Part shown: positions 4,127 through 7,493 of the stretch, piece by piece
How the letters are laid out: each line of letters opens with the position of its first letter
How positions within the stretch are numbered: position 1 is the first letter of the stretch
Source of the DNA: Candidatus Campbellbacteria bacterium
GTDB taxonomy: Bacteria > Patescibacteriota > Minisyncoccia > Phycocordibacterales > CSBR16-193
Length of the DNA: 60,179 nt
Direction of reading: 5' to 3'
NCBI GenBank assembly: GCA_007117035.1
Contig: SKHG01000018.1
Span: forward strand, 1 to 60,179
Program-made: the position numbers and the translations under genes
The notes under the pieces: generated by a model
Databases searched by the model: none
Told to the model about the DNA's origin: nothing
What the model saw: the letters and a program-made list of their open reading frames with translations, nothing else

Positions 4127-5350
4127 TCAGTCCACCTCACCGAAAGAAGGAATTGAGAATCTGGATTTTCTAAATTCTTTTTTATAATCTGAACTTTTCT
4201 TTAACCCTGAACACAGACCAACAACCCCTCTACCAAACCGAAGATTTAAATTATCTATTACTTTGAAAGGAAGACTTATTTCCTGGTGTCTTTCGTTAAA
4301 AAGAACCTGCTGTGTTGACTCTCTGTTTTCTAGACCTGAAAAAATTACACCTGTTGTTCGATACAAAACTCCACTCAAAAAAATACCGTCTAGAATAATG
4401 CGCGCCTGCACAACAGCTATATTGCTCGCATTAGACGGCTGAAAAAACTTAACCTCTTTTTCTTTGTATTTAAAAGTTTGAGTTTTTATAAACACAGACA
4501 TGCACTTGGCTCGAAGATTCATTCTACGAAGATCAAAAGTTGCTTTCTCAATGTGCTCTACTATTTCTTTTAGGAGAAAATCTTTGTTGGCACTAGGAAT
4601 AAAAGTCCTACTAGAACGAATTGATTTTCTAGGTGATAAATTTTCATTACCAAACGGAAAAACTTCTTGACCGTTTAACTCCTGCCATATCGTCTGAAGA
4701 GGTTTATAGAAATCTTTTTGTATTCTTCTAAAATCTTCTGAAACTAAATCAAAGGCATTACGCAAACCAACTTTTTCAAGTTTTTCTGCTGTCCTCTCTC
4801 CAATTCCCCAAACCTTGTTAAGAGGAGTAGCTTTTAAGTAATTTTCTCGATCCTGATCTTTCAAAAAAGTAAAACCGTCTGGTTTGCCCCAGTTAGACGC
4901 AATCTTAGCCAGAACCTTTGTTGATGCTAAACCAACAGAAACAGTAATACCCAACTCCTTTTTTATATCTGATTTTATATTAAAAACTGCACTCTTTACC
5001 TTTCTCTCGAAAAATAATTTACCTTTTTTAAAACGTATAAAAAATTCATCAATACTATACTCCTCTATCTCTTCTCCATACCGACGAGCAATGTCGAACA
5101 TTCTTCTTGAAAAAACCGTGTACAAAAAGAAATCAGAATGGACTACGATAACTTCCGGAAAAAGACGTCGGATTTGTGTAACAGGCATTCCTCTGGTAAC
5201 TCCTAAAACTTTAGCCTCTTTACTCATGGAGGACGCAATACCTCTTTCGGCACCAGTAATAACCGGTCGACTCTTTAAACTTGGATTGATAGACTGCTCA
5301 ACTGATGCAAAAAAAGAATCACCGTCGATATGACCTATGATGTGTGACAT
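4127..5350 (-). CDS. umuC: Y-family translesion DNA polymerase (UmuC/DinB type)
   Basis: HIDGDSFFASVEQ, YSIDE, K(V)LAKIAS, VWGIG motifs; UmuC-like C-tail (IDNLNLRFG); lies 2 nt downstream of the lexA/umuD-like gene. Confidence 0.85.
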   Translation of the reverse strand: MSHIIGHIDGDSFFASVEQSINPSLKSRPVITGAERGIASSMSKEAKVLGVTRGMPVTQIRRLFPEVIVVHSDFFLYTVFSRRMFDIARRYGEEIEEYSIDEFFIRFKKGKLFFERKVKSAVFNIKSDIKKELGITVSVGLASTKVLAKIASNWGKPDGFTFLKDQDRENYLKATPLNKVWGIGERTAEKLEKVGLRNAFDLVSEDFRRIQKDFYKPLQTIWQELNGQEVFPFGNENLSPRKSIRSSRTFIPSANKDFLLKEIVEHIEKATFDLRRMNLRAKCMSVFIKTQTFKYKEKEVKFFQPSNASNIAVVQARIILDGIFLSGVLYRTTGVIFSGLENRESTQQVLFNERHQEISLPFKVIDNLNLRFGRGVVGLCSGLKKSSDYKKEFRKSRFSIPSFGEVD

Positions 5351-5352
5351 GA

Positions 5353-5937
5353 TTATTTGTATTTTCTAATAACCCCAACAACAACAGCAGAAATTTCAAG
5401 ACTCTCTTTCGGATAAATAGGTTTATACTTTTTGTTTGCTGGTTCCAAAAAACTAATCCCGTCTTTCTTTCTTAAATATTTCATTGTCCACTTTCCGTCA
5501 ATTTCAGCGATAACAATACTACCTTCTTTTGGAGTCTTACCTCTTTCAACAACAACAATATCACCTTGCTGTATACCGGCGTCCTTCATAGAATCACCTG
5601 TCACCTTTAGGATAAAACTTGCCTCCCGATTCTCAACCAACCATTCGTCTAGAGTAATAGTATCCAAGAACTGCTCTTCGGCTGATCCTGGAAATCCAGC
5701 CTCAATAGTACCGAGAACTTTGAGTTGACCGAAAAGATTTGTTGGTATGATCCTACCTGTTTTATCTTGTGATATTACACCATCATTAACCAAACTCTTA
5801 ACTAATTTATAAACAGTATTTTTAGATTTAAAACCTAAAAGATTACCTAACTCCGAAAAACTTGGCATTCTTTTTCTTTTTTTATAAAAACCCCTCAATA
5901 TTAAAAGTGTATTTTTATTTTTAATAATTCCAGTCAT
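5353..5937 (-). CDS. lexA: LexA-family repressor with UmuD-like S24 peptidase domain
   Basis: N-terminal wHTH (MPSFSELGNLLGFKSKNTVYKLV), AG cleavage site (IEAGFP), catalytic Ser (GDSM) and Lys (WTMKYL). Confidence 0.9.
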   Translation of the reverse strand: MTGIIKNKNTLLILRGFYKKRKRMPSFSELGNLLGFKSKNTVYKLVKSLVNDGVISQDKTGRIIPTNLFGQLKVLGTIEAGFPGSAEEQFLDTITLDEWLVENREASFILKVTGDSMKDAGIQQGDIVVVERGKTPKEGSIVIAEIDGKWTMKYLRKKDGISFLEPANKKYKPIYPKESLEISAVVVGVIRKYK

Positions 5938-5943
5938 TCTTAA

Positions 5944-5972
5944 AGTATAGTAAACGAACGTTCACCTGTCCA
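5944..5972 (-). promoter_or_regulatory. lexA-umuC promoter with candidate SOS operator in the spacer
   Basis: TGGACA-17-TATACT, ATG 6 nt downstream; GAAC-GTTC-GTTT (GAAC-N4-GTTY) at 5952-5963. Confidence 0.7.
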
Positions 5973-6045: not shown

Positions 6046-6077
6046 AAACCCTACCGTATAAAATACAGTAGGGTTTG
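6046..6077 (-). terminator. Intrinsic terminator
   Basis: AAACCCTACCGTAT-AAAA-ATACAGTAGGGTTT hairpin (one mismatch). Confidence 0.7.
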
Positions 6078-7130: not shown

Positions 7131-7206
7131 GTTTTTTGTTTGATGAATTCCTTTAAAAGAACTCGTTAACTAACAGTAGAATGCCTAACAAAAAAGAATC
7201 TGTCAA
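7131..7206 (-). repeat. Promoter/leader module copy 2 (TTGACA-17-CATTCT, GTTCTTTTAAA)
   Basis: Near-identical to 1075-1151. Confidence 0.9.
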
Positions 7207-7493
7207 TAGTTCCGTAATATCCCAATAGCTTGGAAAAAGCAAAAAATAAAACCCAAGTATGTTGCATATACAAATCTCAAAAAACAGAAAGAAGTTTGTT
7301 TCTGTTTAGTGACGAACAAACAAACCAAAAAATCATAAAAAGTCTTACTTTTTCCTTTGTAAATCACTACTTTAAAAGTGATCTGGGTTTTGCAGAAAGG
7401 ATAAAATATGTATAATAGGGACTTGTATATTATTATATTTTCATTTTATCCAAACAAGCTTTAAAAATATTCAACGTCAGACATACATATAAT

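Follow-up and report, generated by a model that had tools for sequence, protein, structure and literature searches.

The window analysed here is a stretch of 60,179 nucleotides (contig SKHG01000018.1, forward strand) from a Candidatus Campbellbacteria bacterium; it is contig C2 of an assembly of 813 kb in 81 contigs (96.6% complete, 40.9% G+C, stated contamination of 3.5%). On its minus strand lies a gene for a LexA-type repressor that is followed almost immediately by a gene for a Y-family DNA polymerase, and both stand behind one promoter with a putative LexA operator. A sequence-only reading of positions 4127 to 5972 had proposed that the first protein is a repressor and, once cleaved, also the activator of the polymerase. 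All of the elements that it named were present where it had placed them, on the minus strand, and the features of the locus are as follows.

6046..6076, minus strand: intrinsic terminator of the upstream gene (sequence inspection)
5944..5972, minus strand: sigma-70-type promoter, -35 TGGACA (5972-5967), 17-nt spacer, -10 TATACT (5949-5944) (consensus scan, 10/12 matches; layout conserved at orthologous loci)
5950..5965, minus strand: putative LexA operator GTGAACGTTCGTTTAC, 16 bp, Cheo-box type (phylogenetic footprint in relatives; sole strong match of the position weight matrix [PWM] in the genome)
5353..5937, minus strand: lexA-type gene, 194 aa, winged helix-turn-helix (HTH) plus S24 autopeptidase domain (profile searches, AlphaFold2 model, Foldseek)
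5743..5931, minus strand: N-terminal winged HTH, residues 3-65 (AlphaFold2 model and Foldseek; Pfam LexA_DNA_bind below cut-off)
5674..5700, minus strand: predicted cleavage site Ala80-Gly81 and arm GFPGSAEE (alignments; disordered in the model)
5590..5592, minus strand: predicted catalytic Ser116, in GDSM (invariant in 40 relatives; aligns with LexA Ser119 and UmuD Ser60)
5479..5481, minus strand: predicted catalytic Lys153, in TMKY (invariant in 40 relatives; aligns with the catalytic Lys of LexA and UmuD)
4127..5350, minus strand: Y-family DNA polymerase, 407 aa (IMS, IMS_HHH and IMS_C domains; tree)
4298..4312, minus strand: beta-clamp-binding-type motif QQVLF, residues 347-351 (alignment with UmuC sequences; putative function)
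4220..4267, minus strand: RecA-NT-like/DUF4113-like motif FKVIDNLNLRFGRGVV, residues 362-377 (alignment)
4130..4162, minus strand: conserved C-terminal tail RFSIPSFGEVD (alignment of the family)

Read along the minus strand, the terminator (6076-6046), the promoter (5972-5944), the 194-aa open reading frame (ORF; 5937-5353) and the 407-aa ORF (5350-4127) follow one another, and because the terminator lies upstream, the lexA promoter opens a separate transcription unit. As the sequence-only reading had described, the polymerase begins 2 nt after the lexA-type gene, the stop codon TAA being followed by TC and then by the ATG of the 407-aa ORF.

The 194-aa protein is a genuine winged-HTH repressor of the LexA type rather than a UmuD to which an N terminus has been added. 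As a whole, it passed the NCBIfam lexA equivalog model TIGR00498 (126.7 bits against a cut-off of 110.95), which some close relatives just miss (e.g., P0063 at 109.2 bits). Among Pfam models, Peptidase_S24 was matched with an E value of 1.6e-26, and LexA_DNA_bind reached 19 to 21.5 bits, under its cut-off of 23.7. An AlphaFold2 model built on 40 relatives comprised three helices (residues 3-21, 27-34, and 39-51) and a beta-hairpin (residues 55-65), with a predicted local distance difference test score of about 90, followed by the S24 barrel; residues 77-94, which include the cleavage site, were disordered. The best full-length Foldseek match was the E. coli LexA-DNA complex 3jso (E value of 3e-14). 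The model and this match bear out the proposed union of a LexA-type winged HTH with an S24 C-domain, and the peptides that had been quoted in its support (AGFPGSAEEQ..., VTGDSM, and IVIAEIDGKWTMKYL) were all found. Moreover, Ala80, Gly81, Ser116, and Lys153 were invariant across the 40 relatives. The nearest homologues, of the Patescibacteria/Parcubacteria type (Taylorbacteria, Nomurabacteria, Paceibacterota), are annotated as LexA by NCBI and JGI, one relative being named "polymerase" by NCBI. In a genome-wide search with Pfam PF00717, only the lexA-type gene and signal peptidase I were detected in the 813-kb genome, which upholds the earlier claim that there is no separate umuD.

The putative operator lies inside the promoter that serves both genes. 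The 16-mer GTGAACGTTCGTTTAC fills the 17-nt promoter spacer and is one base away from the palindrome GTGAAC-N4-GTTCAC; its core, at positions 5963-5952, is the GAAC-N4-GTTT element that had been reported within the spacer. The site GTGAAC-N4-GTTCAC recurs at the same promoter position upstream of orthologues in many genomes, with the variants TAGAAC-N4-GTTCTA and TCGAAC-N4-GTTCGA. When a PWM was derived from the orthologue sites, the window site scored 22.1 bits and was the only strong match in the 813-kb genome, the next best reaching at most 16.8 bits. Since the same site recurs at the same position upstream of orthologues and is the sole strong match genome-wide, the candidate operator is more than a chance occurrence. 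The weaker PWM matches all lay inside ORFs, and four of the five were on short, high-GC-looking, possibly contaminant contigs; they were therefore dismissed as further operators. The recA gene is present in the genome, and the PWM scan detected no operator in its upstream region. Nor was a second strong operator found in the 813-kb assembly, from which about 3% of the genome is missing and in which weak or divergent sites may escape detection. From these scans, the regulon seems to consist of the lexA-polymerase operon itself. The -10 element ends only 6 nt before the lexA ATG (region 5935-5949), with no Shine-Dalgarno sequence, and the corresponding spacing is 5 to 9 nt in many orthologous loci; the lexA-polymerase mRNA is therefore probably leaderless.

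The second gene encodes the only Y-family polymerase detected with PF00817 in the 813-kb genome. The polymerase retains intact catalytic motifs, namely DGDSFF (residues 9-14) and SIDEFF (residues 99-104). The QQVLF motif aligns with the QLNLF segment of UmuC and, as in UmuC, lies well upstream of the C terminus. The RecA-NT motif, to which FKVIDNLNLRFGRGVV is similar, was defined in PMC6511836; Pfam DUF4113 scored 17.3 bits here against a cut-off of 24. None of the NCBIfam cut-offs was reached (161 versus 431 bits for the UmuC model NF002955 and 200 versus 371 bits for the best Pol IV model). A maximum-likelihood tree was built with 11 UmuC-type polymerases (ten of them beside an annotated umuD or short S24 gene), 7 DinB proteins, 2 ImuB proteins, and 1 plasmid polymerase encoded beside LexA, and without gram-positive YqjW/UvrX references. 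In this tree the candidate phyla radiation (CPR) polymerases formed their own clade (99/97), which was sister to the UmuC clade (100/100) and not inside it (joint support, 99/99), and which stood apart from the seven diverse DinB proteins (97/95). With all Pol IV models failed and a position outside the DinB clade, identity as DinB/Pol IV was rejected. The label "UmuC-type" given in the sequence-only reading was an overstatement, given the score of the UmuC model and the sister position of the clade; the polymerase is better described as UmuC related. In a relative, a second kind of Y-family polymerase (L065, contig C40 of genome G037) ends in FVSPEYTTSWEGIL, a canonical UmuC tail, so true UmuC-type polymerases occur in this order too.

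The C-terminal tail of the polymerase belongs to a family motif, R..(I/L)P.(F/L)LGE(V), which is kept in the LexA-linked polymerases. It was missing in four polymerases, two from genomes without LexA and two that are unlinked to the LexA of their genome. The two orphans from genomes without LexA (L062 of G014 and L069 of G439) end in ...L(N/D)RDLLFL and have no IP.LGEV tail.

The lexA-polymerase cassette is common in Patescibacteria. Orthologues of the polymerase were found in 19 of 61 relatives, and in 18 of these 19 a lexA-like gene was adjacent, typically with a gap of 1 to 4 nt or an overlap. The adjacent lexA-like gene was truncated in 2 of the 18 (G010 and contig C9 of G028). The truncated lexA beside the G010 polymerase has the look of a decayed remnant, with stop codons and with the Ser lost from the ORF, and it was set aside as uninformative. 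Elsewhere in G010, a 1325-aa open frame includes a segment (G010:C2:114516-114800) that shares 48% identity with the N-terminal domain of LexA (residues 16-110); this may be a large protein to which a LexA winged HTH has been fused. In L024, L074, and L079 the lexA and polymerase genes are separated by insertions, namely a 131-aa ORF that we take to be MazF/PemK-like, a 215-aa transposase-like ORF, and a 272-aa nuclease-like ORF. A conserved third subunit encoded between the two genes was considered and rejected, since intervening ORFs occur in few relatives and are unrelated insertions. Among 401 genomes sampled evenly across the class, LexA was present in 41 and the polymerase in 21, which indicates that approximately half of the LexA genes are solo.

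By several measures, the C-domain appears to fall between the LexA and UmuD families, leaning toward UmuD. Residues 79-190 scored 110.0 bits with the NCBIfam UmuD model NF007621, for which the cut-off is 110, and relatives scored 112 to 120 bits; for reference, E. coli LexA and E. coli UmuD scored 85.4 and 163.3 bits, respectively. In phmmer comparisons the C-domain scored 65.7 bits against UmuD' and 58.4 bits against the LexA C-domain alone, and Foldseek TM-scores were 0.84 to 0.89 for UmuD' and 0.70 to 0.78 for LexA C-domains. In length and architecture the protein is unlike the UmuD form of about 140 aa, as it is 194 aa long and its first 79 residues take in the winged HTH.

The segment that follows the predicted cleavage site tracks with linkage to the polymerase. 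In reference alignments, UmuD reads (A/C)|GFPSPA and LexA reads A|G.P(I/L)LA; the N terminus of UmuD' is GFPSPA, and the consensus arm of the polymerase-linked copies is GFPSPAEEE (GFPSPA or GFPSAA). The window arm, GFPGSA, matches GFPSPA at 4 of 6 positions. Sixty-three LexA-family genes were compared, the criterion at position +5 having been fixed after the data were seen. The 32 polymerase-linked genes read G[F/W]PS[P/A]A, with an aromatic residue at +2 in 32/32, P, A, or S at +5 in 31/32, and both in 31/32. The 31 solo genes read G[F/I/L/M]P[S/T][L/V/T]A, and the corresponding counts were 16/31, 7/31, and 4/31 (Fisher P values for linked versus solo genes, 2.5e-6, 3.6e-10, and 1.7e-12). 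Linked and solo genes were intermixed on the family tree, with 11 changes of linkage, at least 4 of which were forced by well-supported branches. Over the four supported contrasts, the arm motif shifted with linkage in 3.4 and in the opposite direction in 0.1. This arm signal matters because of the published Pol V models.

One lineage appears to have kept the S24 domain beside the polymerase after the DNA-binding domain was gone. Upstream of the G028 polymerase lies a gene for a protein of only 138 aa, which lacks the HTH and begins just ahead of ...HAGKTVGFPNPSEEE; the gene has its own promoter, TTGACT-GTGAACGATTGTTCAC-TAAAAT, and overlaps the polymerase start by 8 nt. G028, the only genome of the clade checked for a separate LexA, also holds a normal solo LexA on another contig, so that the two roles look as if they had been split between copies. 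Database searches yielded several distinct relatives of 137 to 142 aa, 69 to 84% identical to the G028 protein, and sister proteins of 197 aa in which the winged HTH is retained. Four of the short relatives were fetched, and their neighboring genes were different in each; all overlap a 440-aa polymerase ending in NIPYCGYV. Throughout the clade there is an 8-nt overlap of each short gene with an orthologous polymerase of 440 to 445 aa, and GTGAAC-N4-GTTCAC stands upstream of each, in most cases within the spacer of a TTGAC(A/T) promoter. The short forms of the clade, 138 to 142 aa long, keep the Ser/Lys dyad. Within the clade, pN was 0.10 to 0.20 and pS was 0.63 to 0.87, synonymous sites being saturated; dN/dS is therefore at most about 0.15, which indicates strong purifying selection. 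Since the S24 domain appears to be selected beside the polymerase even without DNA binding, its retention would be hard to explain if repression were its only job. Solo LexA genes in which the arm has relaxed represent the complement of this state. Adjoining one of the short-S24/polymerase operons, on L113, is a divergent gene for an SRAP protein (SOS-response-associated peptidase; 804-1469).

The reading toward which we incline, if only slightly, is that the locus is a self-contained, self-repressed SOS mutagenesis operon of a Paceibacteria-type patescibacterium, in which the C-terminal fragment of the LexA-type protein would serve both as the product of repressor cleavage and as an accessory subunit of the polymerase. 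LexA dimers are predicted to bind the single GTGAAC-N4-GTTTAC operator in the spacer and thereby to shut off the lexA-polymerase transcript, which is the firm part of the scheme. RecA on single-stranded DNA would trigger self-cleavage at Ala80-Gly81 by Ser116 and Lys153, as expected from the family, and both genes would be derepressed. The released fragment, starting GFPGSAEE, would then probably act like UmuD', its arm inserting into the cotranslated UmuC-related polymerase, and it would probably dock on the conserved C-terminal tail of that polymerase. A single cleavage event would thus both turn the operon on and provide the accessory subunit. In lineages with a stand-alone LexA, either the arm would have relaxed (solo LexA) or the DNA-binding domain would have been lost from the linked copy (short S24 clade). 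The regulatory half of this scheme, a self-repressed unit of two genes with a single operator and the only S24 protein of the genome, is well supported. The dual repressor/activator switch of the sequence-only reading therefore held for self-repression, by way of the operator and the single S24 protein; its activator half is backed by comparison, through the arm motif, the HTH-less clade, the UmuC-side position of the polymerase, and the score of the UmuD model.

The activator half has to be weighed against the possibility, which we regard as real though somewhat doubtful, that the protein is an ordinary LexA acting solely as SOS repressor and that the polymerase needs either no partner or just RecA and the clamp (the "PolY-RecA" type). 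Shared S24 ancestry and the needs of RecA-stimulated cleavage, and not polymerase binding, would then account for the UmuD-like C-domain and arm. Several observations are in keeping with such an ordinary LexA or weigh against an accessory fragment. The TIGR00498 equivalog was passed, relatives are annotated as LexA, and the full-length fold matches LexA. LexA orthologues occur without any polymerase in approximately half of the LexA-bearing genomes (at least 21 genomes). The S24 phylogeny that the sequence-only reading had proposed (41 sequences, 123 columns, a backbone without resolution) favored neither placement; the best tree joined CPR with UmuD at support of 57/0, and a forced CPR-plus-LexA grouping was not rejected (P of 0.52 in the approximately unbiased test) and is thus compatible with the data. 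The window arm differs from GFPSPA at two positions, and the polymerase tail is unlike the UmuD'-binding tail of UmuC, SP.YTT.W. The association of arm with linkage rests on four well-supported independent contrasts (sign test P of at least 0.125), so few pairs that no significance can attach to them, and to this is added the after-the-fact choice of the +5 criterion. The polymerase carries a RecA-NT-like motif; according to predictions, many polymerases of the Y family function with RecA as their sole partner, and the type of complex predicted most often is PolY-RecA (PMC12926913). Finally, lexA-polymerase operons are widespread, and some are known in which LexA has a regulatory role only, namely those of Geobacter (PMC6511836) and of a Methylophaga plasmid; the arm of the plasmid LexA does not resemble that of UmuD. 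An ordinary LexA nevertheless leaves three observations unexplained, namely that the GFPSPA arm is kept only where a polymerase is linked, that an HTH-less copy overlapping the polymerase is under purifying selection alongside a separate LexA, and that LexA-linked polymerases share a specific C-terminal tail that is lost in orphans.

It is also conceivable, but in our judgment very unlikely, that the S24 C-fragment or short form has a regulatory role rather than being a subunit of the polymerase, acting through mixed dimers with LexA, through competition for the RecA filament, or as a checkpoint brake. S24 domains dimerize, and the short forms lie behind a LexA operator and retain the Ser/Lys dyad. 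In E. coli, UmuD is known for inhibitory and checkpoint functions too, with uncleaved UmuD2C as a brake. UmuD together with RecA lowers DinB mutagenesis (PMC6511836). Against this possibility, the strict gene overlap and the conserved polymerase tail suggest a physical partnership with the polymerase; as between activation and restraint of the polymerase, the data fit either.

If the cleaved fragment does serve the polymerase, the operon would be the smallest complete SOS mutagenesis circuit known, with one operator, one sensor/repressor/activator, and one polymerase in genomes of about 0.8 Mb, and it would be a second, evolutionarily independent design combining repressor and Pol V subunit after Acinetobacter UmuDAb. 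If it does not, the locus is an ordinary, already described autoregulated lexA-polymerase operon. A further possibility, which we think unlikely, is that the polymerase-linked LexA of Patescibacteria is a living bifunctional stage between LexA and UmuD, and the short clade a step to UmuD once a second LexA takes over repression; were that so, such lexA-polymerase cassettes could be the ancestors of Pol V-type systems in general. The natural series observed here, which leads from long copies with a bifunctional look to solo LexA with a relaxed arm and on to HTH-less copies, could be used to test how LexA and UmuD diverged.

Beyond the operon, a 58-nt direct repeat (86% identical; 1099-1156 and 7154-7211, about 6 kb apart) flanks the region and is unrelated to the lexA promoter. 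Four short contigs of G000 (C10, C14, C43, and C62) have ORFs that overlap on both strands and a G+C content that by eye seems high against the 41% of the genome; they are probably contaminants of the bin.

The LexA regulon and SOS network of Patescibacteria have reportedly been analyzed by Sanchez-Osuna, Barbe, and Erill in 2017. The locus shares with E. coli umuDC (Pol V, UmuD'2C-RecA-ATP) an S24 gene directly upstream of a Y-family polymerase gene, a LexA operator, and a GFPSPA-like arm, and the polymerase resembles UmuC in having a clamp-type motif, a RecA-NT-like motif (below the DUF4113 cut-off here), and a C-terminal tail that is conserved. E. coli UmuD differs in lacking a DNA-binding domain, its N-terminal arm being 24 residues long, and in its repression by a separate LexA, and the tail of the window polymerase differs from that of UmuC. 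With canonical LexA and lexA-linked cassettes, such as lexA-imuA-imuB-dnaE2 and Geobacter's operon lexA-imuB-C-polY (PMC6511836), the locus has in common self-regulation, a cotranscribed error-prone polymerase, a GAAC-N4-GTTC operator, the winged HTH, the Ala-Gly site, and the Ser/Lys dyad; plasmid lexA-Pol IV pairs and lexA-imuA-imuB cassettes are other such operons. In those cassettes, however, LexA is regarded as nothing but a regulator, with the arm G.P(I/L)LA, whereas the window arm is UmuD-like. The YqjX/YolD proteins of B. subtilis, which act with YqjW/UvrX and have an accessory N-terminal arm predicted to insert into the polymerase (PMC12926913), likewise are encoded by a small accessory gene ahead of a UmuC-like polymerase, but YolD is a separate, non-S24 family and was absent from the 813-kb host genome in a genome-wide search.

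The closest functional parallel put forward was UmuDAb of Acinetobacter, which the sequence-only reading had called a partial precedent. The precedent stands, and "partial" is now too weak, because UmuDAb (UmuD1389) was reported in 2026 to act as a repressor and also to be the precursor from which an active Pol V subunit arises, the full-length protein with UmuC2015 giving the highest mutagenesis induced by methyl methanesulfonate (PMC13062779). Like the window protein, UmuDAb joins an S24 domain to an additional DNA-binding part at the N terminus and acts as a repressor of genes for error-prone polymerases. After damage it is cleaved at an Ala-Gly site, as is predicted for the window protein, and with UmuC2015 the cleaved form yields a mutagenically active Pol V (PMC13062779, PMC4807011). 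Unlike the window protein, UmuDAb is described as a UmuD turned repressor; it needs the corepressor DdrR, acts at an atypical SOS box, and belongs to a genus that has no LexA, its umuC partners being encoded elsewhere. The window protein instead passes the LexA equivalog model and has a LexA-type winged HTH, a putative Cheo-type GAAC-N4-GTTC box, and translational coupling to a noncanonical relative of UmuC. Together, these comparisons suggest that what sets the locus apart from known systems is a winged-HTH LexA coupled to a polymerase, seemingly regulating itself only, in a family that also includes both of the "separated" states.

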